The notes under the pieces are model-generated. The model was given only the letters and a program-made list of their open reading frames with translations, searched no databases and was not told where the DNA came from. DNA of 64,000 nt from Planctomycetota bacterium (GTDB lineage Bacteria; Planctomycetota; UBA11346). Location: contig JANWWU010000066.1 in NCBI GenBank assembly GCA_025055595.1, forward strand, positions 11,147 through 75,146. Reading direction: 5' to 3'. Of the stretch, positions 7,397-23,936 are shown piece after piece (position 1 is the stretch's first letter; each line of letters starts with the position of its first letter). The translations under genes and the position numbers were made by a program.

Positions 7397-8322
7397 CGAG
7401 CGGGCCAGGGATCGCCCCAGCGGCAGCGGCGCGCCGCCGGCCACGCGGGGTCGCGGGGGTAGACGGTGCGCTGCTGCGCGCCCTGTCCATCGCAAACCAG
7501 CACGCTGATCCCGCCGCCGCGGCGCGCCGGCGGCGCGAGCACGCGGCCGGCCGCGAGCGGCGCCCCCTGGCGGCGCGCCAGCAGCCAGGCGAATCGCTCT
7601 TCCTCCCACCCGAGCAGCGCCCCGCCCTTGAGGTGGCGCTGACGACGATGGCGCGGCAGGCGCACCGCGAAGTGGCACCAGCCCCAACCGGCGGTCGGCA
7701 GCGGGCAGGGCCCCTCGTGCGGGCAGGGCGCCACCAGGCGCGCACCGAGCGCGAGCAGCTGGCAGCGCGCGGCCTGCACCACGGCGGCCCCGGCCGGGGT
7801 CCCGGGCTCGACGAGCAGCAGGCCATCGCCCGCGCGCTCCCAAGCCCAGGCGAGCGCCGCGGCGCGCGCCGCGCTCGGCAGCTCGCCGAGGCTGTAGGCG
7901 AAGAGCACGCCATCGTGTACCGGCAGCGCGGACGGCGGCTGCCGCAGGTCGGCCTCCAGCCAGCGCGCCTCCGGCGCCAGCCGCGCGCCGAGCGCGCGCA
8001 GCGCCGGCGAGCGCTCCACGGCGGTGCAGAGTTCAAGCTGCGGGCAGCGCCAGCGCGCCGCCCACCAGCCGGCGCCGCAGCCGGCGCCGAGGTCGAGCAG
8101 ACTGCGCCAGGGCGGGGGGCCGGCGCGGCGCAGGGCCTCGGCGATCGCCGCCACCGTCGCCGGCATCCGCGCCCAGGCGTAGGCCAAGGCGCTCGCCGCC
8201 TCGTCGATCTCGGCCCGGCCCTGGGCGCGATAGGCCGCCTGCAGGCGCTGCCAGGCGCTGGCGGCCTCCGCGGCCGAGGGCAGGGCGTCGAGCGCCGCCC
8301 ACAGCTCCGGCGGCAGGGTCAT
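7393..8322 (-). CDS. Rsm22-like (COG5459) SAM-dependent methyltransferase
   Basis: M at residue 201 of track ORF 7393..8922 (MTLPPELWAALDALP…). The GxGxG-like segment LLDLGAGCGAGWW is present. The upstream 200 codons of the ORF are Arg-rich junk. A 'cat' is seen at 8320-8322. Confidence 0.7.
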   Translation of the reverse strand: MTLPPELWAALDALPSAAEAASAWQRLQAAYRAQGRAEIDEAASALAYAWARMPATVAAIAEALRRAGPPPWRSLLDLGAGCGAGWWAARWRCPQLELCTAVERSPALRALGARLAPEARWLEADLRQPPSALPVHDGVLFAYSLGELPSAARAAALAWAWERAGDGLLLVEPGTPAGAAVVQAARCQLLALGARLVAPCPHEGPCPLPTAGWGWCHFAVRLPRHRRQRHLKGGALLGWEEERFAWLLARRQGAPLAAGRVLAPPARRGGGISVLVCDGQGAQQRTVYPRDPAWPAARRCRWGDPWPAR

Positions 8323-8753
8323 GCGCGCTGCACCGGCCCCGGCTGGCGCTGCCGCGCCAGGGCGAGGGTCCCGCCGTCGAGCAGCCACAGCGCCGCGCCC
8401 TCGCGGCTCTCGTCGGCGCCGAGCAGACCGCGCGGCAGGTCGTCGAGCGCCAGCTCCGCGTCGTCCAGCCGCTCGAGCGGCAGCTGCCAGCCTTGCCAGG
8501 TGGCGACGGCGAAGAGATCGGTGAGCAGGGCATCGAGGCCCGCGCGGTCGCGGCGGGCGACGCTGGCGAGATCGCCGGCCTCCAGCTCGCCGGCCAGGCG
8601 CAGGCAGCGGCGCAGGTGCTCGGCGAGGCCGCGCTCGGCGAGCCAGACCAGCTCGCGCTCGACCAGCGCGCGGTAGCGCGCCAGCAGCGGCGGCGCGGTC
8701 AGCGCCGCGACCAGGCTCGGCGGATCGACGCGGTAGCGCTCGCAGCGGTTCAC
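8319..8753 (-). CDS. hypothetical protein (~144 aa) hidden in the tail of a longer spurious ORF
   Basis: The last ~144 codons of track ORF 8319..11144 have clean composition (VNRCERYRVDPPSLVAALTAPPLLARYRALVERELVWLAERGLAEHLRRC…). A GTG start overlaps the stop of the upstream peptidase gene (GTGA). Its own stop overlaps the ATG of the Rsm22-like gene (ATGA). It fills an otherwise 427-bp gap inside a tightly coupled operon. Confidence 0.5.
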   Translation of the reverse strand: MNRCERYRVDPPSLVAALTAPPLLARYRALVERELVWLAERGLAEHLRRCLRLAGELEAGDLASVARRDRAGLDALLTDLFAVATWQGWQLPLERLDDAELALDDLPRGLLGADESREGAALWLLDGGTLALARQRQPGPVQRA

Positions 8754-11692
8754 CAGCGGAAGCCCAGCGCGGCGTAGATCGTGTAGTCCTCCTCGCCGTC
8801 GATCTGGCGCGCGAGGCCGAGACCGGGCGCGACCCGCACCAGCCAGTACTCGATCTCGAGGTGCAACTCGACGCCGGCAGCGCGGTACCAGCGCGCGCCG
8901 GGCTGGTGGCGGCGCAGGACATCGCTGACCCGCGCGCCGTCGTAGAACAGCTCGGCGACGAGCTGGCGCGTGACCCACGGCGTGGTGCCGGCGCCGACGA
9001 AACCCTGCCACAGCGGCAGGCGGTAGCCGGCGCTGCCGGCCAGCAGCACCCGCCCGCGCGCCATCGTCTTCGGATAGCCGCGCGGGACGCCGAGCGCGGC
9101 GTCGCCGCCGATGCCCCACACCCCCTGCAAGCTCGGCGGGCCGTCGCTCCAGCCGAGCTGCGCGCCGAGCACCAGCTGGTGGTTCCACGACGGCAGCACC
9201 GGCTGGCTGTACGAGGCCTGCAGCAGCGCGCGGTTGTTGGTCGCGCTGCCGACGCGCCAGCTGGCGGTCGCGCTCAGGCCGTCCTCGGCGGCGTAGCTCG
9301 TCGGATAGAGGATGCTGTCGTCGTAGGCCAGCGTCAGCGCGCCGTAGCCCTCCTCGCCGCGCCACGGCTGGCGCCCGATCACCGTCAGCCCGCGGTAGTC
9401 GTCGGCCGCGCTGTCCACCGGCTCGCGGCGCTCCCAGCCCGCGGCCAGCCAGCCCTGCCAGCGCCGGCCGTAGCCGCCCATCCCGTAGCCGAGGCGGGCT
9501 TCCACGCTGTCGACGAGCTCGACATAGTCGTAGGCCCGGCCGTCGCTGGCGAGCAGCTGCTCGTTGTAGCCGAGCTCGCGGCGCAGCGCGACGAAGGCCG
9601 GTCCCGGCTGCCAGCCCTGGTAGCTCCAGGCGAGGAGGCCGACCGCGCTGTGCTCGTGGTAGCCGACGCCGAGCGAGGCGATCACCGTGTGGGTGAGCAG
9701 GGCATCGTGGGCGACGGCGACCGCGCCGAAGGCGCCGAGGCTGTCCGGGACGGCGACGGTGGTCGGAGTCCAGTAGCGTGGCCGCAGGCTGTCGAGCGCG
9801 CGGTACGGCTCGGCCTCCGGCAGCGCCGCCGGCGCGAGCGGGCGCGGCGCGGGATCCGGGCGATCCGCGCCGACGGCGTACGGTCCGAGCGGTTGCCGCT
9901 CGATCGGCGCCGGCCAGCCGTGCGGCACCTCGGGCAGGGCCGGCGGCCATCGCCGCTCGTCGAGCGGCATGACGGCGAGGAAGGGGCCCAGCTGATCGTG
10001 ATCGAGGACGGCGAGCAGGCGGCCGTCGGGCGAGGGCACGGCGGCGAGCACCGCGCCGATCGTGTTGGTGACGGGGCGGATGGCGCCGGCGAGCTCGACG
10101 CACCAGGCGTTGGCGACCCCGGAGACATCGCTGGCGCAGAACACGCGCTCGCCCGCGGCGTCCCACGCCGGGTGCAGGATCCGCGCCGGCACCTCCCAGA
10201 GCACGCGCCGCCCGCCGCCGTCCGGCCGCGCCAGCACCAGGCGCGAGCCGCGGGCGTCGGTCTCGACCCAGCACAGCTCGTCGCTGCCCGGTCGCCAGGC
10301 CGGGGCCCAGGGCCGGCCCTCGCTCGGGATCTCCTCCGGCTCGCCGTCGTCGCGCCAGCGGATCAGCCGCTGCCGCCCGGCGCCGACGAACTGCACGGCG
10401 ACGACCTCGAGGCTGTCGCCGCGGCGGCGGGCATCGGGCTGGATGACGCGCGGATGCGGCCACTCGCGGACGACGCGCGCGCCGTCGGCGACGAGCCGCG
10501 CTCGGCTGGGTCGCCAGCGGTCGCCGCCGACCGCGGCCTCGGCGTAGATCTGGTGCCGGTCGTCGACCCGGCGCAGCGCGCCGAGCATCCAGGCCGAGGG
10601 TTCCTGCAGCGCGTTCTCGATGCGCCCCTGCGCGCTGGTGATCGCCAGCGCGGGGCGCGCGGTCGGACTGTCGGCGGCATGCACCAGGCGCTCGCCCATC
10701 CACGCCGGGGCCGCGATCCGCCAGTGCGCCGGGCTGCGCCGCGTCGCATGGGTGACGGGCTGGCTGCGGATCAGCGCGAGCATGCGCTGCTGCTCGGCCT
10801 GCAGGTCCTGCCGCGCCTGGGCGATCAGGAACGGATGCTCCCAGCCCAGGCTCGGCTCGCTGCCGCGGCGGAAGGCGAAGGGCAGCTGCAGCCGGCCCTG
10901 GTCCTCGACCACCCGCCACAGGCCGCGGCGATCGCCGTAGGCCGCGGCCAGCCAGCGCGCGTAGGCCAGGCCGTAGAGGTAGGCACGGTTGCCGAAGGGC
11001 CAGCGCTCGTAGGAGAGGCGCCAGGTGTCGGGCGGGGGGATGCCGCCGGCGGCGGCATCGAGGCGCCACGCCGCGTGCACCAGCGGATCGCGGCCGCGCC
11101 CGGCCCACGGCGAGGCCGGATCGGCGTAGGCGGTCTCCGCCCACTGCGCGACCGCCTCGTGCCAGAAGCCCGGCGACAGCACATGGTTCGGCACGCTGCC
11201 GAGGAAGACGAGCAGCGACAGCGGATCGTGGGGCAGGACGCGGCCGAACACCGTCTCGAGCGCGGCGCGCCAGCCGTGGTTGCGGTCGTTGGCCAGGTGA
11301 TGGGCGAACTCGTGCACCAGCGTGCGCTCGAGGTCGTCGCCGCCGGCGAACAGCTGGCTCTCGGGGCGGCTCGGCGCGAGCTGGACCTGGACCAGCGGGA
11401 AGGGGACGACGGTCGAGAAGCCGTTGTGCGCGTCCTCGTCGTCGGTGAACACGAGGTGCAGGGTGCGCGTCGGCTGCCAGCCGGCATCGTCGATCATCCG
11501 CCGATAGAGCGCGATCGCGCGCGCGACGGCCTCCTCGAGCTGCGCGCGCTGCGCGCTCGGCACATGGATCGCGAGTCCGGGGACGCGGTAGGTGTGATAG
11601 CGCACGCCGGGCTTGAACGGCGACTGGTCCTCTAGCGCGCCGAGCGCGGCGGCCAGGGTCAGCAGCAGCGTACCGAGCAGGGATCGTCTCAT
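8750..11692 (-). CDS. large secreted/outer-membrane multidomain protein: N-terminal HEXXH metallopeptidase-like domain (LVHEFAHHL), TolB/PD40-like beta-propeller region, C-terminal beta-barrel ending …ALGFRW
   Basis: M at residue 73 of track ORF 8750..11908 (signal peptide MRRSLLGTLLLTLAAALGA). 'cat' at 11690-11692. The start overlaps the ruvB stop (ATGA). The HEXXH motif and the aromatic C-terminal residue typical of OM barrels are read directly from the translation. Confidence 0.7.
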   Translation of the reverse strand: MRRSLLGTLLLTLAAALGALEDQSPFKPGVRYHTYRVPGLAIHVPSAQRAQLEEAVARAIALYRRMIDDAGWQPTRTLHLVFTDDEDAHNGFSTVVPFPLVQVQLAPSRPESQLFAGGDDLERTLVHEFAHHLANDRNHGWRAALETVFGRVLPHDPLSLLVFLGSVPNHVLSPGFWHEAVAQWAETAYADPASPWAGRGRDPLVHAAWRLDAAAGGIPPPDTWRLSYERWPFGNRAYLYGLAYARWLAAAYGDRRGLWRVVEDQGRLQLPFAFRRGSEPSLGWEHPFLIAQARQDLQAEQQRMLALIRSQPVTHATRRSPAHWRIAAPAWMGERLVHAADSPTARPALAITSAQGRIENALQEPSAWMLGALRRVDDRHQIYAEAAVGGDRWRPSRARLVADGARVVREWPHPRVIQPDARRRGDSLEVVAVQFVGAGRQRLIRWRDDGEPEEIPSEGRPWAPAWRPGSDELCWVETDARGSRLVLARPDGGGRRVLWEVPARILHPAWDAAGERVFCASDVSGVANAWCVELAGAIRPVTNTIGAVLAAVPSPDGRLLAVLDHDQLGPFLAVMPLDERRWPPALPEVPHGWPAPIERQPLGPYAVGADRPDPAPRPLAPAALPEAEPYRALDSLRPRYWTPTTVAVPDSLGAFGAVAVAHDALLTHTVIASLGVGYHEHSAVGLLAWSYQGWQPGPAFVALRRELGYNEQLLASDGRAYDYVELVDSVEARLGYGMGGYGRRWQGWLAAGWERREPVDSAADDYRGLTVIGRQPWRGEEGYGALTLAYDDSILYPTSYAAEDGLSATASWRVGSATNNRALLQASYSQPVLPSWNHQLVLGAQLGWSDGPPSLQGVWGIGGDAALGVPRGYPKTMARGRVLLAGSAGYRLPLWQGFVGAGTTPWVTRQLVAELFYDGARVSDVLRRHQPGARWYRAAGVELHLEIEYWLVRVAPGLGLARQIDGEEDYTIYAALGFRW

Positions 11693-13230: not shown

Positions 13231-14211
13231 TCAGGGCGTCGGCGCCGGCGCAACCGCGTCGCCGGCGGGCAGGATCTGCAGCGTGATCGGGCTCGGCAGC
13301 AGGCGCAGGCCGGGCGGGCCCTGGACCTGCACCGGCACGATCAGGGAGCCCGGCGGCGGCTCGCGGCGCAGGTCGACCCAGGCGAGGAAGTCGCCCGGCT
13401 GCGCCGAGCGCACCGCCGCCTCCAGGCCCTCGATGCGCAGCGTCGTCAGCGGCTCGGCCGGCTCGACCCGCCAGCGCCCGCTGTGGCGCGCCGGCAGCAG
13501 CAGGGCGACCGGCACCTGCAGCGTGGCGCTGGCGCTGCGCGCCGGCGCGACGATCACCGTCGCCACCACCGGGTCGAGCGGCTGCGGCAGGCCCTCGACG
13601 ACATGCAGGGCGACGCGCTCCTCGAGCGGCGCCGACAGCGCGGGATCGATGCCGTCGAGGCGGATCGGCGCGAAGCGCAGCGGCTCGCCGCTGGCCTCGA
13701 ACATCGCCAGCCGCTCGGCGCTGTCGCGGACCTCGATGCGCGTGCGATCGAGGCGGACCTCCGCCGACAGCCCGGAGGGCAGGCCGAGGACCGGCGGCGG
13801 CTCGGCGGGCAGCGTCGCGGTGATCAGCCGCGCCAGGCGCACGCCGATGCTGCGCAGGGCGGGATCGGTGCGGACGATCCGCATGTCGGAGTCGAGGCCG
13901 AGCAGGCGGCTGGTCAGCGTCAGCTCGACGGTGCCGGCCTCGCGCGCGCGCGGCAGCTCGAGGTGCGGGCGCAGCACGCCCTCGCGCAGGGCCTGGGTCT
14001 TGTTCGCCGGCAGCGAGATGACGGCGACGAAGTCCGGCGGATCGATGGCGGCGACGGTGAGCCCCGGCGGCAGGCCGCCGACGCGCGCCGGCGACAGCTC
14101 GACCTGCACCTGGCGCTCGACGCGCACCTGTCCGCTGGTGTAGCTCCACAGCGCGATCGCGATGACCAGGCTGACGAGCTTCAGCCGCCAGTCGGCGAGC
14201 AGCCACCTCAT
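13231..14211 (-). CDS. cdaR: YbbR-domain protein, putative CdaA regulator CdaR
   Basis: M 326 codons before the end of track ORF 13231..15129 ([24 protein letters not shown], an N-terminal TM helix). Repeated YbbR-like segments follow. The ATGA overlap with the cdaA stop matches the conserved cdaA-cdaR synteny. Confidence 0.7.
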   Translation of the reverse strand: MRWLLADWRLKLVSLVIAIALWSYTSGQVRVERQVQVELSPARVGGLPPGLTVAAIDPPDFVAVISLPANKTQALREGVLRPHLELPRAREAGTVELTLTSRLLGLDSDMRIVRTDPALRSIGVRLARLITATLPAEPPPVLGLPSGLSAEVRLDRTRIEVRDSAERLAMFEASGEPLRFAPIRLDGIDPALSAPLEERVALHVVEGLPQPLDPVVATVIVAPARSASATLQVPVALLLPARHSGRWRVEPAEPLTTLRIEGLEAAVRSAQPGDFLAWVDLRREPPPGSLIVPVQVQGPPGLRLLPSPITLQILPAGDAVAPAPTP

Positions 14212-15853: not shown

Positions 15854-15974
15854 GCCGCGATCCTAGCATGCGCCCCGGCCGCGGCAGCAGGGCGCACCGC
15901 GGCCGAGGCGCGCCCTGCGCAAGCTGCGCGCGCGTGCGATTGCGACACCGCTCGCCGCTTTAGGGTTTCCGCCG
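15854..15974. promoter_or_regulatory. divergent intergenic region between folP (-) and the NifU-like/suf cluster (+)
   Basis: 121-bp non-coding gap flanked by divergently oriented operon starts. No specific motif identified. Confidence 0.25.
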
Positions 15975-16688
15975 ATGCCTGCGGAAGCCACGCTGACGCG
16001 CGCCGCCGAGCAGCGCCTGCGCGCGCCGCGCACGCGCGGCGCGTTCAGCCAGCGCGATGCCGCGCGCCGGCGCCTCGCCCTGCTCGAAGCCAGCGATGGC
16101 GCCGGGCAGGCGGCGATCTTCTGGCTGGTCGAGCTGCCGGCGCAGCGCATCGCCGACGCGCGCTTCCTCGCCTTCGGCTCGCTGTGGAGCCACCCGCTGG
16201 CCGACGCCTTCACCGAGCTCGTCCGCGGACGGAGCCTCGACGAGGCCTGCGCGCTGCCGCTGGCGCGCGTCGAGGCCCTGCTGCGCGACGACCCCGAGGT
16301 CCCGGCCTGCGCCGAGAGCGAGCTCGCCTTCCTCGCCGACCTCCAGCAGCGCGCGCGCGCCGCCGCCCCGCAGCTCGCGGTGCCGCCGCCGCTGACCGAG
16401 AAGCCGGTGTACCAGCGCAAGCGCCCGCAGGACTGGAACGAGCACGACCGCGCCTGGCTGCCGCTGTCGCTGCTCAAGAAGGTCGCCAAGGTCGACGCCG
16501 CGATCGCCCGCGTCCTCGCCGACAAGGCGCCGCAGGCGCGGCACCGCGTCGAGGGCCTGCACGACGACTTCCGCGTCGTCTGCCTGCTCGAGGGGGTCGG
16601 CGACGCCGAGCGCCACACGCTGGCGCTGTTCATCGCCAGCGCCCTGCGCGAGATCCATCCCGAGCTCACCGTGGAGGTGCCGCCATGA
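15975..16688 (+). CDS. IscU/NifU-like scaffold-domain protein lacking most cluster-ligating cysteines (pseudo-scaffold), with C-terminal extension
   Basis: Track ORF. The N-terminal ~120 aa align by eye with IscU: ENPRNVGSFD ~ [10 protein letters not shown], and [33 protein letters not shown] ~ [33 protein letters not shown]. The IscU Cys37 and Cys63 positions are replaced. The stop overlaps the sufB ATG (ATGA). Confidence 0.55.
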
Positions 16689-18130
16689 GCGCCCTCGCCC
16701 CCCCGCTCAGCAGCGAGGCCGATGCCTACAAGTACGGGTTCCGCAGCGCGGTCGAGAGCGTCACCCTCGCGCCCGGGCTCAACGAGGAGACCGTGCGGCA
16801 GATCAGCGCGGCGCGCCGCGAGCCGCCCTTCCTGCTCGAGTTCCGCCTGCGCGCGTTGCGCGCCTGGCAGCGGATGCGCGAGCCGACCTGGGCCGCCGTC
16901 GAATATCCGCCGATCGACTACCAGGCGATCAGCTACTTCTCGGCGCCGAAGCAGCTGCCGCGCCATGGCTCGCTCGACGAGGTCGATCCCGAGATCCTGC
17001 GCACCTTCGAGAAGCTCGGCATCCCGCTCGACGAGCGCAAGCGCCTCGCCGGCGTCGCCATCGACGCGGTGTTCGACTCGGTGTCGATCGCGACCACGCA
17101 CCAGGAGAAGCTGTACGACGCCGGCGTCATCTTCTGCTCGCTCGGCGAGGCCGTGCAGCGCTTCCCGGCGCTCGTCGAGCGCTGGCTCGGCAGCGTCGTG
17201 CCGGTCACCGACAACTGGTTCGCGGCGCTCAACAGCGCGGTGTTCTCGGACGGTTCCTTCGTCTATGTCCCGCCCTACACGCGCTGCCCGCTCGAGCTCT
17301 CGACCTACTTCCGCATCAACAACACCGAGAGCGGGCAGTTCGAGCGCACGCTGATCATCGCCGACCGCGGCAGCTATGTCAGCTACCTCGAGGGCTGCAC
17401 GGCGCCGCGCTCCTCGGCCCACCAGCTGCACGCCGCGGTCGTCGAGCTGATCGCGCTCGACGACGCCGAGATCAAGTACTCGACGGTGCAGAACTGGTAC
17501 GCCGGCGACCCGGCGAGCGGCCAGGGCGGGGTCTACAACTTCGTCACCAAGCGCGGGCTGTGCAGGGGCGCGCGCTCGAAGATCAGCTGGACCCAGGTCG
17601 AGGCCGGCAGCGCGATCACCTGGAAGTATCCGAGCTGCGTGCTGCGCGGCGACGACAGCGTCGGCGAGTTCTACAGCGTCGCCCTGACCAACGGCCGGAT
17701 GCAGGCCGACACCGGGACGAAGATGATCCACATCGGCAAGCGCACGCGCTCGCGGATCGTCTCCAAGGGCATCAGCGCCGACCGCAGCCGCAATGTCTAC
17801 CGCGGCCTCGTCCAGGTGCAGAAGAGCGCCGAGGGCGCGCGCAACCACACGACCTGCGACTCGATGCTCGTCGGCAAGCGCGCCGAGGCCCGCACCTATC
17901 CGTACATCGATGTGCAGCGCGACGACGCCGTCGTCGAGCACGAGGCCTCGACCAGCCGGCTCTCCGAGGAGCAGCTGTTCTACCTGCAGGCGCGCGGGCT
18001 GGCCGAGGAGGACGCGGTCGGCCTGATCGTCAACGGCTTCGCGCGCGAGGTCCTCGCCGAGCTGCCGCTCGAGTTCGCCGCCGAAGCGCGCAAGCTGCTG
18101 CAGCTCAAGCTGGAGAACTCCGTCGGATGA
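16685..18130 (+). CDS. sufB: Fe-S cluster assembly protein SufB
   Basis: ATG at 16685 inside track ORF 15068..18130. 481 aa with the canonical SufB sequence throughout (…[21 protein letters not shown]…). Confidence 0.95.
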
Positions 18131-18873
18131 GCCTGCTCGAGATCGCCGACCTCAGCGTCGCGGTCGCCGGCCGCACGGTGATCGAGCGCCTGTCGCTCGC
18201 CGTGCCCGCCGGCTCGCTGCACGCCGTCATGGGGCCCAATGGCTCGGGCAAGAGCAGCCTGGCCAAGGCCCTGGCCGGGCATCCGGCCTACGCCGTGACC
18301 GGCGGCAGCGTGCGCCTCGCCGGCCGCGACCTGCTCGCGCTCGCTCCCGAGGAACGCGTGCACGCCGGCCTCTTCGTCGGCATGCAGTACCCGACCGAAG
18401 TGCCGGGGGTGAACAACGGCGAGTTCCTGCGCCTGGCGGCGAACGCCGTGCGCCGCGCGCGCGGTCTGCCGGAACGCACGCCGAGCGAGTTCGCGCCGCT
18501 GCTGGCCGCGGCGCTGCAGGCGAGCGAGGCGCCGGAGGACTTCGCGCAGCGCCAGCTCAACGCGGGGATGAGCGGGGGCCAGAAGAAGCGCAACGAGATC
18601 CTGCAGATGTTCGTCCTCGAGCCGAGCGTCGCGGTGCTCGACGAGACCGACTCCGGCCTCGACATCGATGCGATCAAGGCGGTGGCGCGGGCGATCAACG
18701 CCTACCGCCGCGCCGACCGCGCGCTCGTCCTGATCACGCACTTCCCGCGCCTGCTCGAGCTGGTGCAGCCCGACCGCGTCCATGTGCTGGTCGGCGGGAG
18801 GCTGGTGGCCAGCGGCGACGCCGCGCTCGCTGCGCGCCTGGAGGCCGAGGGCTATGAGCGGTTCCGCGCTTGA
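18127..18873 (+). CDS. sufC: Fe-S cluster assembly ATPase SufC
   Basis: ATG overlapping the sufB stop (ATGA). Walker [10 protein letters not shown] and ABC signature SGGQKKR are present. 248 aa. Confidence 0.95.
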
Positions 18874-19777
18874 GCTGCCGAGCAGCGCGCTCGAGGACTG
18901 GCGCTATGTCGACTGCCGGCCGCTCGCTGCGAGTCCGGCCTCCCAGGCCACTGTCCTCCCCGGCCGGCCCTGCGCCGCAGACGCTTTCCCGGAGCCCAGC
19001 GACGCGACGCACCGATGGGCCCTCGCCGGCGAGCGCCGCGCCGTGCAGCCGGACTGCGGGCAGCTGCTGCTCGAAGATCGCGGCGGCTGCTGGGCGCTGC
19101 TCGTCGAGCTGGCGCCGCGCCAGCGCCTGCGCCTCTGCGTCCGCCGCCACCCCGCCGCCGGACGCAGCGCCAGCTGGCTGCACTGCCGGCTCGCCGCCGG
19201 CTCCTGCCTCGAGATCCGCGACGAGCACGAGCAGCCGCTCGGCGTGCACCTCGCGGCGTGGAGCGTCGAGCTCGCGAGCGATGCGACCTGCGCGCTCGGC
19301 GTCGTGCAGCGCGGCGGGCTGCTGCAGCGCCAGCGCCTCGACGCGCAGCTGCTCGCGCCGGGAGCGGAGGCGCGCGTCGTGCGCCTCGCCGCGCTCGATG
19401 GCGCGCGCCAAGCCCATCTGCTGGCGCGGGTCACCCACGCCGTCGGCCCGACGCGCAGCCGCCAGCTCGCCAAGGCGGTGCTCGCCGACGCCGCGCGCTC
19501 GAGCTTCGACGGCCTGATCCGCGTGCTGCCCGGAGCCGACGGCAGCGACGCCCTGCAGCGCGACCATCACCTGCTGCTGTCGCCGCAGGCCCGCGCCGAC
19601 AGCCGGCCGCAGCTCGATGTCCGCGCCGACGAGGTGCAGGCGGCGCACGGCGCGACGATCGGCCGCCTCGACGCCGAGGAGCAGCTCTACCTGCGCCAGC
19701 GCGGGCTGCCGGTCGCCGAAGCCGAGCGTCTGCTCGTCGCCGCCTTCCTCGCCGAGGCCGAGGAGGCCCTGCCGTGA
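18854..19777 (+). CDS. sufD: Fe-S cluster assembly protein SufD (short form)
   Basis: M at residue 25 of track ORF 18782..19777 ([19 protein letters not shown]…). C-terminal SufD-like …EEQLYLRQRGLPVAEAERLLVAAF… Position between sufC and sufS fits. Confidence 0.8.
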   Translation: MSGSALELPSSALEDWRYVDCRPLAASPASQATVLPGRPCAADAFPEPSDATHRWALAGERRAVQPDCGQLLLEDRGGCWALLVELAPRQRLRLCVRRHPAAGRSASWLHCRLAAGSCLEIRDEHEQPLGVHLAAWSVELASDATCALGVVQRGGLLQRQRLDAQLLAPGAEARVVRLAALDGARQAHLLARVTHAVGPTRSRQLAKAVLADAARSSFDGLIRVLPGADGSDALQRDHHLLLSPQARADSRPQLDVRADEVQAAHGATIGRLDAEEQLYLRQRGLPVAEAERLLVAAFLAEAEEALP

Positions 19778-20982
19778 GCTTCGATCCCGAGGCGATCCGC
19801 AGCGAGTTCCCGGGCCTGGCCGAGCTGCGCGACGGCCGCCCCTACACCTACCTCGACAGCGCGGCGACGGCCCACAAGCCGCGCTGCGTCATCGAGCGCG
19901 TCGCGGAGCTGCTCGGCCCAGCCTACGGCACCGTGCACCGCGGCCTCTACCGCCGCGCGGCGCAGATGACCGAGCGCTACGAGCAGGCGCGGCGGACGGT
20001 CGCGCGCTTCCTCGACGCCGACCCCGGCGAGATCGTCTTCACCGCCGGCTGCACCGACGCCCTCAACCTCGTCGCGCACGGCTGGGGCCGCGCCCACCTC
20101 AGGCCGGGCGACCGCATCCTGGTCAGCGGCATGGAGCACCACGCCGGGCTCGTCTCCTGGCACACCGCCGGCTTCAAGCCCGAGCCGATCCCGCTGCGCG
20201 ACGATGGCAGCCTCGATCTCGAAGCCTACGACCGCCTGCTCGCCGCCGGCGGCGTCAAGCTCGTCGGCTGCGTGCACATCTCGAACGCGCTCGGCACGAT
20301 CAACCCCGTCGCCGAGCTGGCGCGCCGCGCCCACGCCGCCGGCGCGCTGTTCTGCCTCGATGCCGCGCAGAGCGCGCCGCATCTGCCGCTGTCGGTGCGC
20401 GCGCTCGGCTGCGACTTCCTCGCCTTCGCCGGCCACAAGGTCTATGGCCCGACCGGGATCGGCGTGCTGTGGGCGCGCCGCGAGCTCCTCGAGGCGATGC
20501 CGCCCTGGCGCGGCGGCGGCGAGATGATCGAGCGCGTGTCCTTCGCCGGCACGACCTATGCCGCGCCGCCGGCGCGCTTCGAGGCCGGCACCCCGCCCTT
20601 CGTCGAGGCGATCGGGCTGGCGACGGCGCTGGAGTGGCTGATGGCCCAGGATCGCGCGGCGATCCTCGCCCACGAGCGCGCGATCTACGACTACGCCGAA
20701 CGCCGCCTCGCCGAGGTCCCCGGCCTGCGGCGCATCGGCACCGCGCCCGAGCGCGGCGGCGCGCTGTCGTTCGTCCTCGCCTGCGCGCACCCCGCCGACA
20801 TCGCCGCCGTCCTCGACGCGCAGCACATCGCGATCCGCGCCGGGCACCACTGCGCGCAGCCGGTGATGGAGCGCTTCCGCGTCAGCGCGACGGCGCGCGC
20901 CTCGATCGCGCTGTACACGACGCGCGCCGACATCGACCGCCTGCACGACGGGCTCCAGACCTGCGTCCGCCTCTTCGGGTGA
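19774..20982 (+). CDS. sufS: cysteine desulfurase SufS (class V aminotransferase)
   Basis: GTG overlapping the sufD stop (GTGA) within track ORF 19015..20982. PLP lysine in AGHKVYGPTGIG and catalytic Cys in RAGHHCAQP. Confidence 0.9.
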   Translation: MSFDPEAIRSEFPGLAELRDGRPYTYLDSAATAHKPRCVIERVAELLGPAYGTVHRGLYRRAAQMTERYEQARRTVARFLDADPGEIVFTAGCTDALNLVAHGWGRAHLRPGDRILVSGMEHHAGLVSWHTAGFKPEPIPLRDDGSLDLEAYDRLLAAGGVKLVGCVHISNALGTINPVAELARRAHAAGALFCLDAAQSAPHLPLSVRALGCDFLAFAGHKVYGPTGIGVLWARRELLEAMPPWRGGGEMIERVSFAGTTYAAPPARFEAGTPPFVEAIGLATALEWLMAQDRAAILAHERAIYDYAERRLAEVPGLRRIGTAPERGGALSFVLACAHPADIAAVLDAQHIAIRAGHHCAQPVMERFRVSATARASIALYTTRADIDRLHDGLQTCVRLFG

Positions 20983-20985
20983 GCG

Positions 20986-21819
20986 ATGCTGCGGCTCGCG
21001 CGCCAGGGCCTGGGCATCCGCGAACAGGTCGTCGCCGATCCCGGCAGCAGCCTGCGCTCGCTGGTCAACTGCGGCGATCACTGGCCGTTCACCTGGCACT
21101 ACCACCCCGAGCTCGAGCTGACCGCGGTCGAGCGCGGGCAGGGCGTGCGCGCGGTCGGCGACAGCATCGCCCCCTTCGCCGCCGGCGATGTCGTGCTGAT
21201 CGGCAGCGCGGTGCCGCACAGCTGGGCCAGCGAGCCCGGCCTGCCCGGCGGCGTGCAGGCGGTCGTCGTCCAGTTCCCGGCCGAGCTGCTGGCGGCGACC
21301 GCGGAGGCCGCGCGGCTGCGCCAGCTCGCCGAGCGCGCGTGCCTCGGACTGTGCGGGCCGCCGACGGCGGTCGCCCTGGTCCGCGCCATCCACGAGGCGC
21401 GCGCGCCGCTGCGCCGCCTCGCCCGCCTGCTCGAGGTCCTGGCGGAAGCCGAGCAGTGGACGCCGCTGATGCGTCCGGTCGCGCGCCGCCACCACCGCGA
21501 TCCGCGCCTGCAGCGCGCGCTCGCCTGGCTGGACCAGCACGCGCGCGAGCCGCTGCGCCTCGGCGAGCTGGCGTCCCGCGTCGCGATGCGGCCGCCGGCC
21601 CTGTCGCGCGCCTTCCGCACCGCGTACGGGATCACGCCCTCCGAGTACGTCGCGCGGCTGCGCATCGGCCTGTGCTGCCGCGAGCTCGCCGAGAGCGACG
21701 CGGAAGTGGCGGCGATCGCCTTCGCCAACGGCTTCGGCAGCCTGGCGAGCTTCCATCGCTGGTTCCGCCGCCTGACCGGCAGCTCGCCGGAGCTGTGGCG
21801 GCGCCGCCTGCGGGGCTGA
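20986..21819 (+). CDS. AraC-family transcriptional regulator (cupin + HTH)
   Basis: Track ORF. Cupin-like N-terminal half and a C-terminal AraC HTH (…YGITPSEYVARLRI…). Confidence 0.8.
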   Translation: MLRLARQGLGIREQVVADPGSSLRSLVNCGDHWPFTWHYHPELELTAVERGQGVRAVGDSIAPFAAGDVVLIGSAVPHSWASEPGLPGGVQAVVVQFPAELLAATAEAARLRQLAERACLGLCGPPTAVALVRAIHEARAPLRRLARLLEVLAEAEQWTPLMRPVARRHHRDPRLQRALAWLDQHAREPLRLGELASRVAMRPPALSRAFRTAYGITPSEYVARLRIGLCCRELAESDAEVAAIAFANGFGSLASFHRWFRRLTGSSPELWRRRLRG

Positions 21820-21820
21820 G

Positions 21821-22792
21821 ATGGGCGCCGCCCATGCCTGCGCCTACCGGCGGGTGGCGATCGCCGCCTGGGCGGCGCTGAGCGCCGCCGGCGACGCGCA
21901 CGCTACCTGGCAGGCGATCTGCGAGCAGCGCCGCTGCCTCGCGCTCGACCCGGAGTGGGGCTGGGTCGGGCGCTGCGCGGCCGGCGATCAGGAGGAGCTG
22001 GCGCTCGCGGTGTGCCGTCGGCTGCCGCGCCCGCAAGCCCCGCTCGCCTTCGGCATGGCGACGAGCAAAGGCACGCTCGCGCAGCATGCCGCTGCCGCCG
22101 GTCCCCCCTGGCTCGCCGCCTGGCCCGGGGCGGCCTCGGCGCGCCTCGCCGCCCGCCTGCAGCTCGGCCTCCACCTGCCGGTGTGCTGCGTCGCCGCCTG
22201 CTCGACCGCCCTGGCGACCCTGCTGGCCGGGGCCGACGCGCTCGAGCGCGGGCAGGCGGCGCAGGCCCTGGTCGGGGCCGCCGAGGCCTCCTTGACGCCG
22301 CTGATCCTCGCCGGCTTCCGCAACGCCGGCGTCCTGTGCGGTGCGACTTTGCCGCAGGCTTTCGCCGCCCCGACCGGCTTCGCGCCGGCCGAGGGCGCCG
22401 CCGCCTTCCTGCTCGCCGAGCGCGGGCCCTGGCGCCTGCTCGCCGGGGTGCGGCTCGGCGACGCCGAGCACGAGACCCACTGCCTCGATCCGCTCAGCCT
22501 CGGCTGCGCCCTGGAGGCGCTGTGGGACCTCGCTCCCCGCCCCGAGCTGATCGTCTGCCACGCCACCGGCACCGCCCACGGCGATGCCTACGAGGGCGCT
22601 GCCCTGGCGCGCGGGCCCTGGGCGGCGGTGCCGCGGCTCTGCGCCAAGCCCTGGATCGGCCACACGCTGGGGGCCAGCGGCGGCGTCGAGCTGGCGGCCG
22701 CCCTGCAGGCCCCCTGCCAGCGGCTGTGGAAGCTCTCGCTCGGGTTCGGCGGGCACATCGTCGCCCTCGCGGTCGAACGCATGCTCCGGTAA
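21821..22792 (+). CDS. minimal beta-ketoacyl-ACP synthase-like protein (thiolase fold; Cys …CCVAACSTALA…, His …CHATGTAHGD…, …GHTLGASG…)
   Basis: Track ORF. KAS N-terminal motif (RRVAIAAWAALSAAG ~ RRVVVTGLGxxSPxG) and a Cys/His/His triad are present. The protein is only 323 aa, about 90 aa shorter than FabF/FabB. It starts 2 nt after the AraC stop. Confidence 0.65.
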   Translation: MGAAHACAYRRVAIAAWAALSAAGDAHATWQAICEQRRCLALDPEWGWVGRCAAGDQEELALAVCRRLPRPQAPLAFGMATSKGTLAQHAAAAGPPWLAAWPGAASARLAARLQLGLHLPVCCVAACSTALATLLAGADALERGQAAQALVGAAEASLTPLILAGFRNAGVLCGATLPQAFAAPTGFAPAEGAAAFLLAERGPWRLLAGVRLGDAEHETHCLDPLSLGCALEALWDLAPRPELIVCHATGTAHGDAYEGAALARGPWAAVPRLCAKPWIGHTLGASGGVELAAALQAPCQRLWKLSLGFGGHIVALAVERMLR

Positions 22793-22859: not shown

Positions 22860-23936
22860 TTGCCGCTCCCCGTGGTCAGCGCTGCCCAGCCCCAACTTGC
22901 CAGACCCCGCTCCCCGGCGCGGCGCGCGCGCTGGGCGCCGATCCTTGCGGCCTTGCGCGACCAGCCCTGGCGCGAGCTGCTTGCAGCCAGCGAGCTGCTC
23001 GAGGCGCTCGCCGCCCAGGGCCTGGAGCTCAGCGAGCGCACGCTGCGCCTGCACTGCGCGGAGCTCGGCGCCGCGGGCCTGATCGAGCGCGTCGGCAAGC
23101 GCGGCTACCGCCTGACGCCCGCCGGCCTCGAGGCGGCGCGCGCGCTCGCCGTCCAGCGCCGGCTCGGCACGGTCGCGGCGCGGATGGAGAGCATGGTCTG
23201 CCAGCTGACCTTCGATCCCCGCCGCCGGCAGGGCCTGGCCTCGATCAATGCCTGCGTCGTCCGCCGCTCGCTGCTGCCGACCCTGCTCGCCGACCTCGAG
23301 GCGGTGTACGAGAGCGGGCTGGCGGTCGGCGACCGCGTGCTGATCGCCGAGCCCGGCAGCGAGGTGCTCGGGCGACGGGTCCCGGAGACCTGCGTCGGGA
23401 TCGGCACCGTCTGCTCGCTGACCATCGCCGCCACCCTGCTCGCCGGCGGGGTGCCGACGCAGCTGGTCGGCGGGGCCCTGCTCGGCATCGTCGAGCGCCG
23501 CCCCGCGCATCTGCTCGAGCTCGTCCGCTACGACGCCAGCTCGCTCTCGCCCAACGAGCTGTTCATCCGCGCTCGCCTGACCAGCGTGATCGACGCCGCG
23601 CGCTGCGGCGAGGGCCGGATCACCGCCAGCCTGCGCGAGCTGCCGATGTCGGCCCTGCCGCGGCTCGACGAGGCGCTCGCCGCCTGCCGCGAGGCCGGTT
23701 TGCACGGCGTGCTCGCCGTCGGCAAGCCCGGGCAGACCCTGCTCAACGCCCCGCTCGGCGAAGGCCGGGTCGGCCTGCTGCTCGCCACCGGCCTCAATCC
23801 GCTGGCCGGCCTCTGGGAGCGGCACCTCGTCTCCGCCAGCGATCCCGACACCGCCAGCCCGATGGTCGGGCCGGCGGAGTGGCAGTCGCTGATCCCGGTG
23901 CGCGAGCTGCGCGCCCGCCTCGCCCGTTTCCTGTAG
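22860..23936 (+). CDS. NrpR-like nitrogen repressor-family regulator (winged-helix + DUF128/NRD-like domain), tentative
   Basis: Track ORF. The N-terminal segment [39 protein letters not shown] resembles the NrpR wHTH (…ISERTVRYHL…ERVGxRGxxIT…). It lies immediately upstream of gltBD, with an 8-nt gap. The family call is from memory of NrpR sequences and was not searched. Confidence 0.45.

Follow-up and report, generated by a model that had tools for sequence, protein, structure and literature searches.

A NifU-derived protein without cluster ligands heads the sufBCDS operon of a Planctomycetota clade: a candidate accessory subunit of the SUF machinery

A 64,000-nucleotide stretch of contig JANWWU010000066.1 (assembly GCA_025055595.1, Planctomycetota bacterium; the whole stretch is hereafter the window) carries on its forward strand, directly upstream of sufB, an open reading frame (ORF) at 15975..16688 whose 237-amino-acid (aa) product we call X. 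X consists of an IscU-like and an Nfu-like module joined by a conserved linker, and both modules are without cluster ligands; the whole protein is therefore a doubly degenerate NifU-type protein. What is demonstrated below is its homology and fold, the absence of its ligands, its conservation throughout the family, its link with the operon and its place in an evolutionary series. With moderate confidence we propose that X is a non-cluster-binding adaptor or accessory subunit of SufS and/or SufBCD, with a docking mechanism that we infer from its relatives and fold. The gene and its parts are as follows.

15975..16688, + strand: X gene, encoding a NifU-derived protein free of Cys ligands, with degenerate IscU-like module, linker and degenerate Nfu-like module (Pfam, alignments, AlphaFold2 (AF2), Foldseek, codon G+C)
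15996..16373, + strand: IscU/NifU_N-fold domain, aa 8-133, canonical ligands all replaced (Pfam, Foldseek, alignments)
16374..16439, + strand: conserved linker, aa 134-155 (alignments, model confidence, comparison of groups)
16440..16685, + strand: Nfu-derived alpha-beta-beta-alpha-beta domain, aa 156-237, without CXXC (AF2, Foldseek, hhalign, relatives)

The N-terminal domain has the IscU fold and has lost its ligands

A first-pass annotation of this stretch, made from the sequence by eye, had likened the first ~120 aa of X to IscU. This likeness holds, is statistically significant and covers the N-terminal ~130 aa. Pfam NifU_N (PF01592), whose gathering threshold is 22 bits, matches residues 15-111 with 31.8 bits (E 1.8e-7). 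A phmmer search of the PDB with the single X sequence gave weak matches to IscU (E ~0.04), and a profile of 26 family members reached solved IscU structures at E 4e-5. The AF2 model built from the same 26-member alignment has a mean predicted local distance difference test (pLDDT) score of 94.7. Searched against the PDB with Foldseek, it superposes on E. coli IscU (3lvl_A, E 5e-6, template-modelling score TMt 0.76, root-mean-square deviation (rmsd) 3.2 Å), and its top 50 matches are IscU and SufU chains exclusively. By profile and by fold, the N-domain of X therefore belongs to the NifU_N superfamily and has the IscU/NifU_N fold. Matches of the full-length protein to anti-sigmaE and PDE6_gamma were dismissed as noise.

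The ligand positions were mapped in alignments of 26 family members and of the 121 homologues taken into the conservation analysis, in a MAFFT L-INS-i alignment with genuine NifU-type N-domains and in an hmmalign alignment of 150 representatives. C37 of E. coli IscU falls in a 4-residue deletion beside A43 of X, and G38-D39 corresponds to the invariant G44-Q45. C63 is replaced by S69; the preceding G68 is invariant and positions 69-71 are variable, which bears out the earlier observation that GCGS has become GSLW. H105-C106 lies opposite L117/A118 (MAFFT) or A118/F119 (hmmalign). As these alignments place them, the three canonical cysteines and the Asp and His ligands are all gone. The first-pass annotation was thus right about the loss and wrong about its extent, as it had counted two cysteines replaced and a third, C112, retained. 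X and its NifU-type relatives share a 7-residue insertion, LRDxPxxPA, that is missing from E. coli IscU. Once this is placed, C112 stands opposite the L/V of (L/V)PPxK and is therefore a product of mis-registration, not a canonical cysteine; the alignment with NifU-type relatives rules it out as a kept third ligand. Moreover, it is present in only 68/121 members (56%), with Phe in its place in 37. X also lacks the LPPVK motif to which HscA binds, the aligned segment reading C-AES-ELA.

The other cysteine to consider is C92, found in 113/121 members (93%) and replaced by Ala or Gly in the other 8. Related groups have C/A/V/I/L in its column, an indication that the site is small, hydrophobic and buried, and in the AF2 model C92 is located in a short helix, not in a mobile loop. 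Given the composition of this column among relatives, we consider a functional thiol unlikely here. There is no invariant cysteine among the 121 sequences, and 3 members have none at all. What is invariant in the N-domain includes G44, Q45, W50, R63, F64, G68, S72, H73, D77 and LRDDP (103-107); of the conserved features, the ARFxxxG strand, D77 and LRDxP are inherited from NifU.

The C-terminal domain is an Nfu domain that has lost its CXXC

X had at first been treated as one IscU-like domain with a tail left unexplained. This tail, the C-terminal ~95 aa, proves to be a degenerate Nfu domain. In the AF2 model residues ~141-237 form a helix-strand-strand-helix-strand unit with a pLDDT of 92.4. 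Its top Foldseek superposition is Arabidopsis CnfU (2z51; prob 1.0, TMq 0.58, rmsd 2.1 Å over 72 columns), at an E of 0.027 that is not significant alone, and the mouse NifU-like domain 1veh was matched as well. Neither X nor 26 C-domains of the family gave a Pfam hit to PF01106 at E <= 10, and a sequence profile search of the PDB with the C-domain found nothing; its matches to PDE6_gamma, Lon and HPTransfase in the Pfam and PDB profile searches were rejected as noise.

Two further results settle the origin of the domain. When the family C-domain was compared by hhalign with 82 CXXC-bearing C-domains, the two aligned over 89 columns (Prob 86%, E 4.9e-6); the invariant G207 was put on the G of GxCxxC, with a deletion of ~4 residues at the CXXC site, so that the CXXC loop has become G207-VGDAERH-T215 in X. 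Moreover, a full-length profile search of 1.84 billion representatives returned 150 proteins, many of which are collinear with X from end to end, yet contain a genuine Nfu domain with CXXC and a match to PF01106. On the strength of the hhalign comparison and of these homologues, the C-domain of X is a degenerate Nfu domain from which CXXC has been lost. Its invariant residues are H196, D197, D198, G207, T215 and H228.

X is the end member of a series that stays with the suf operon

More than 175 full-length homologues of X (counted as sequence clusters) were found, with identities of 49-80%, and conservation reaches 95% or more at 63 positions in the 121 sequences analysed. A scan of one genome per species yielded 30 loci of this family, all in metagenome-assembled genomes (MAGs) labelled Planctomycetota, a few of them Brocadiaceae or Kuenenia. 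The gene for X is directly followed by sufB in 29 of these 30 genomes, and then by sufC, sufD and sufS wherever the contig extends. The placement of X as the first gene of a sufBCDS operon, to which it is translationally coupled in the window, is general in this uncultured Planctomycetota clade; a homologue heads the operons of the sister groups A2 and B (below) too. In the single exception, locus L009, the X homologue (7998-8699) is followed downstream by a MarR-family gene (8779-9249), and the flanking ORFs have no Pfam match. Identity to the window copy across the loci is 40-65% for X, 57-83% for SufB (73-83% for full-length matches), 52-74% for SufC, 25-62% for SufD and 57-79% for SufS. 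The range of X is within that of the SUF proteins, and thus X evolves as a normal SUF component. No conserved extra gene was found 3' of sufS in this clade.

The hmmalign alignment sorts X and its relatives into five groups, X's own family being A1.

Group A1 (X family): N-domain Cys-less; C-domain Cys-less; X-sufBCDS, no sufU
Group A2 (more distant): N-domain Cys-less; C-domain Cys-less; X-sufBCDS-sufU
Group B: N-domain Cys-less; Nfu with CXXC; X-sufBCDS-sufU
Group C: N-domain Cys-less; Nfu with CXXC; adjoins, or is fused to, a NifS-like domain
Group D (true NifU): N-domain with CGD, FGCG and HC ligands; Nfu with CXXC, after a BFD domain

These groups form a series that runs from true NifU, through proteins in which the IscU-like domain is Cys-less and the Nfu CXXC intact, to proteins in which both domains are Cys-less, and X is its end member. 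In the operons of A2 and B a NifU_N protein of 150-155 aa (sufU) follows sufS, and on one short group B contig the N-terminus of SufB begins within the stop codon of the X homologue. The wider family reaches beyond Planctomycetota, since a Nitrospinae MAG is the named source of one group B relative; on this one sister-group member we make no claim of a distribution across the Planctomycetes-Verrucomicrobia-Chlamydiae superphylum. In group C the homologues adjoin a gene for a NifS-like class-V aminotransferase or are fused to its C-terminus.

The doubly degenerate groups have also gained features. The linker of X has the consensus PKPxEKxxYxRKRxxDW (the prolines are PPP in the window), with Y146 and K149 invariant, and the wider motif PKPxEKxxYxRK...D(W/M)...DxxWLPLS is common to the CXXC-less groups A1 and A2 and is not seen in the CXXC-bearing groups. 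Residues 141-150 are the lowest-confidence stretch of the X model (pLDDT 69). An invariant linker that is nevertheless modelled with low confidence would be typical of a partner-binding peptide that becomes ordered on its partner. Moreover, G44-Q45, H73 and H196-D197 are essentially specific to A1. The new linker motif, together with these newly fixed His, Asp and Gln residues, points to neofunctionalisation rather than decay.

Two observations on the relatives are recorded here in their own right. Five NifS-like fusions or neighbours were noted (P0191, P0192, P0242, P0259 and P0261; loci L038 and L039), and by eye the five fusions conserve neither the pyridoxal phosphate-lysine motif nor the catalytic-cysteine loop of the NifS-like domain; degeneration may have affected the desulfurase part too. 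In group B locus L036 an extra gene with NifU_N and Fer2_BFD domains (13525-14166, - strand, 213 aa) lies just past sufU, giving three IscU-fold proteins around one suf operon.

Operon layout and a promoter-like element

15938..15966, + strand: bipartite promoter-like motif, GATTGC ... TAGGGT (cross-species comparison)
16685..16688, + strand: ATGA overlap of X stop and sufB start (sequence; translational coupling)
16685..18130, + strand: sufB (NCBIfam SufB equivalog NF008773, 825.9 bits against a cut-off of 717)
18127..18873, + strand: sufC, ATGA overlap with sufB (TIGR01978, 306.6 bits against 212.8)
18854..19777, + strand: sufD, short form of ~307 aa, start inferred (TIGR01981, 162.9 bits, under the cut-off of 222)
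19774..20982, + strand: sufS, type II cysteine desulfurase, GTGA overlap with sufD (TIGR01979, 466.6 bits against 475.1)

The ORF at 15975..16688 is a genuine gene and, from the conservation described above, is under purifying selection. The G+C content of the window is 74%, and that of the X gene by codon position is 0.81/0.50/0.96, with sufBCDS alike; a long antisense ORF (15960..16658) is merely its mirror frame. The overlap of the X stop with the sufB start was correctly seen in the first-pass annotation. All five neighbouring genes from X to sufS overlap, by 20 nucleotides (nt) in the case of sufC and sufD, and an overlap or short gap between the X-type gene and sufB recurs in relatives. 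NCBIfam bears out the assignments of sufB, sufC, sufD and sufS. There is no sufU 3' of sufS in the window operon. The window SufS scores 352 bits with E. coli SufS and 342 bits with B. subtilis SufS, a comparison made with regard to SufE- versus SufU-dependence.

Upstream of X, GATTGC (15938-15943) and TAGGGT (15961-15966) make up a bipartite motif that ends 8 nt ahead of the ATG. The pattern RWTTGC-N15-20-TANNNT occurs just 5' of the start in 17 of 31 loci, the window included, whereas shuffled controls average 0.05 and never exceed 1, and it ends 6-25 nt from the start codon in those 17 (the window, L001, L003, L004, L007, L008, L012-L019, L021, L025 and L029). A generic sigma-70 and terminator scan of the window did not call this motif and returned nothing relevant. 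Having a conserved motif directly 5' of it, X is the promoter-proximal gene of the suf operon, and the short spacing suggests that suf mRNAs of the clade are leaderless or near-leaderless.

What X might do in the SUF machinery

The first-pass annotation had supposed that this scaffold fold probably cannot hold a cluster. With the canonical ligands all lost this now looks well founded, and an accessory function other than that of a scaffold is the most sensible reading; the regulator and the chaperone-docking adaptor put forward at the outset are conjectural. In the reading we favour, X would no longer build or carry a cluster and would instead work within the SUF machinery as an adaptor or accessory subunit, present in stoichiometric amounts. 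Its IscU-like module would retain the ancestral docking on SufS and/or SufBC2D. A further contact surface, formed by the new linker motif together with the altered Nfu-like domain, could bridge or gate the hand-over of sulfur or clusters, or stabilise the complex. In the ISC, NIF and SufU systems it is the IscU fold that docks on the cysteine desulfurase; for this reason, and because relatives of X are fused to a NifS-like domain, we infer docking on the desulfurase. The adaptor reading is further backed by precedent, as degenerate Fe-S domains are kept as recognition modules in NfuA and in plant NFU1-3.

Several facts weigh against this proposal. A metal site could just as well be made by the invariant Q45, H73, D77, D105, H196, D197, D198 and H228; C92 leaves room for a thiol-based role, as 93% of the family have it; and in L009 the X gene is away from sufB and next to a MarR gene. 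Moreover, since A1 operons have no sufU, the role of X could be more active than that of a passive adaptor. The absence of SufU and SufE had been remarked upon at the outset, both being expected at this place. It stands as far as searched: tblastn (E <= 1e-3) found none of SufU, SufE, SufA, SufT or Nfu in the 64-kb window and the 30 related loci, the SufE query being that of E. coli, and sister operons do have sufU. There, however, sufU follows sufS in the same operon as an X homologue, and so X is neither a positional replacement for sufU nor simply a displaced sufU.

The invariant residues may also be read as ligands of a different kind. X would then be a metallochaperone or iron donor that supplies SufBCD with iron and in which Cys has been exchanged for His, Asp and Gln. 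Q45/H73/D77/D105 would occupy the former cluster pocket and H196/D197/D198/H228 an end of the Nfu-like domain, giving a single mononuclear site for Fe(II) or Zn(II) or two of them. The invariant residues that replace or surround the old ligand positions are indeed His, Asp and Gln, and H73 and H196-D197 are specific to the family; judged from the AF2 secondary structure and Nfu topology, the HDD of the beta-hairpin turn and H228 of the alpha2-beta3 loop would be at the same end of the domain. Nor is any protein known to donate iron to SUF, which counts in favour of this role. We nevertheless hold it to be unlikely. The equally Cys-less A2 does not conserve H73 or H196/D197, and the site would have to be clade-specific; D77 and LRDxP come from genuine NifU and hence are no new ligands; and a buried polar network filling the empty cluster pocket accounts for the same conservation.

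Thiol chemistry is more doubtful still. If X stood in for SufU or SufE as a persulfide carrier or as an activator of SufS, its sulfur acceptor would be C92 (or C112). Such a role would suit a clade whose operons are without the sufU that follows sufS in sister operons, and would suit SufS, a type II desulfurase that normally needs an acceptor (PMC8593673); C92 is there in 113/121. Yet it is Ala or Gly in 8 members, 3 members are devoid of cysteine, and the column is C/A/V/I/L in relatives whose operons encode SufU. As C92 is in a short helix instead of a mobile loop, C112 is Phe in 37/121, and sufU or sufE may be elsewhere in the genome, we regard such a carrier as very improbable. No better placed, and if anything a shade less credible, is an Fe-S cluster held by non-canonical ligation, for example between subunits with SufB or SufD or with glutathione. 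Descent from cluster-binding domains and the tight coupling to SufB would agree with it; it is contradicted by the want of an invariant cysteine, by the 3 members with zero cysteines and by the physical deletion of the CXXC loop. A regulatory decoy or sensor, competing for instance at the SufU/IscU site on SufS to throttle sulfur flux, or reporting the state of SufBCD, has a slim chance. An IscU fold without chemistry in a promoter-proximal gene is what such a role would look like, but Pfam and NCBIfam find no DNA-binding or signalling domain in X, stoichiometric translational coupling to SufB suits a subunit better than a regulator, and X coexists with sufU in A2 and B operons. Lastly, the loss of ligands in both domains might mark X as a decaying, non-functional relic of NifU. 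To this we give almost no credence: ORFs are intact in 30 species-level genomes and in more than 175 sequence clusters, conservation is 95% or higher at 63 positions, motifs have been gained, and the folds are predicted with high confidence. The conservation pattern effectively refutes the relic already.

Taken together, an accessory or adaptor subunit of SUF remains the reading we prefer. A bolder extension of it, which we think improbable, is that SUF in this clade runs without SufE and SufU and that the Cys-free X provides a third, chemically different coupling between SufS and SufBCD, either as an allosteric non-thiol activator or bridge or as a His/Asp iron donor. If clade genomes truly lack both SufU and SufE, X would be a candidate for such a new coupling and considerably more interesting.

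Public annotation names the X family "iron-sulfur cluster assembly scaffold protein" or "NifU-like". The scaffold label is contradicted here, as by its sequence the family cannot be a canonical scaffold or carrier. The groups described above offer a clean series from nature: ligands are shed by the IscU module first and by the Nfu module next, while the gene stays first and coupled in the suf operon. The X family is thus a good system in which to study non-cluster roles of scaffold folds, such as docking, gating and metal delivery.

Neighbouring genes

An AraC-family regulator gene (20986-21819) begins 4 nt past the sufS stop in the window, and co-transcription with suf is possible; this placement is not kept in related loci. 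It is followed by a shortened ORF of 323 aa resembling beta-ketoacyl-ACP synthase (21821-22792), with partial, weak matches alone, and by a 358-aa ORF without an NCBIfam match (22860-23936) that lies between the suf operon and a glutamate synthase gene. SufD varies in length, as L001-L005 and L013 show beside L033, L036, L041 and L043: sister operons encode a SufD of 387-440 aa, remoter clade members one of 350-415 aa, and the window and its nearest relatives one of only ~300-336 aa. From these lengths, the N-terminal portion of SufD seems to have been lost in the sub-clade of the window.

Comparison with known systems

We found no description of the X family in full-text literature on suf, NifU or IscU with Planctomycetes or Chlamydia, or on degenerate domains. 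With the N-domain of NifU and IscU (PF01592), X shares the profile match, the fold and being encoded with a cysteine desulfurase, and with NifU-type members also the ARFxxxG strand and the LRDxPxxPA insertion. It differs from them in lacking the three ligand cysteines, Asp39, His105 and LPPVK, and in its linkage to sufBCDS instead of nifS or iscS. NifU proper (TIGR02000) scores only 14.9 bits against a cut-off of 273, and where NifU has its central Fer2_BFD domain X has a 22-aa linker. X falls far under the cut-offs of the NCBIfam equivalogs for NifU, SufU and clostridial NifU.

SufU (TIGR01994) resembles X in its IscU fold and in belonging to suf operons. Unlike SufU, X has no Cys3-Asp zinc site, and it scores 12.1 bits where the NCBIfam cut-off is 92.5; the sufU gene comes after sufS and the X gene before sufB, and A2 and B operons have both. 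SufE offers no parallel. X has no Pfam hit to SufE (PF02657) at E <= 10, and tblastn with E. coli SufE found nothing in the window; a resemblance of GCQSxVW to GQAxIxW seen by eye was accordingly rejected.

The sister family made up of groups B and C, publicly annotated as 'NifU-like protein' or 'NfuA/NifU-like', is collinear with X over its full length (family profile E 1e-20 to 1e-23) and its N-domain is already Cys-less; in group B the gene is also directly 5' of sufB. In contrast to X, these proteins keep CXXC, match PF01106 and have no YxRK...WLPLS linker motif, and the group B operon ends with sufU.

The plant plastid proteins NFU1-3 have a degenerate Nfu domain without cysteines (PMC3721309). 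This second Nfu domain of NFU1-3/CnfU (2z51) is, like the C-domain of X, an Nfu fold that lacks the cluster cysteines, but in the plant proteins a functional CXXC Nfu domain is present in the same chain. The closest described architecture is that of E. coli NfuA, in which a Cys-less A-type domain directs the protein to its clients (PMC8593673, PMC3721309). As in X, a Cys-less scaffold or carrier module stands beside an Nfu domain. The degenerate module is A-type in NfuA, however, and has the IscU fold in X, and in X the Nfu domain has given up its CXXC as well, leaving no cluster-binding module in the protein.

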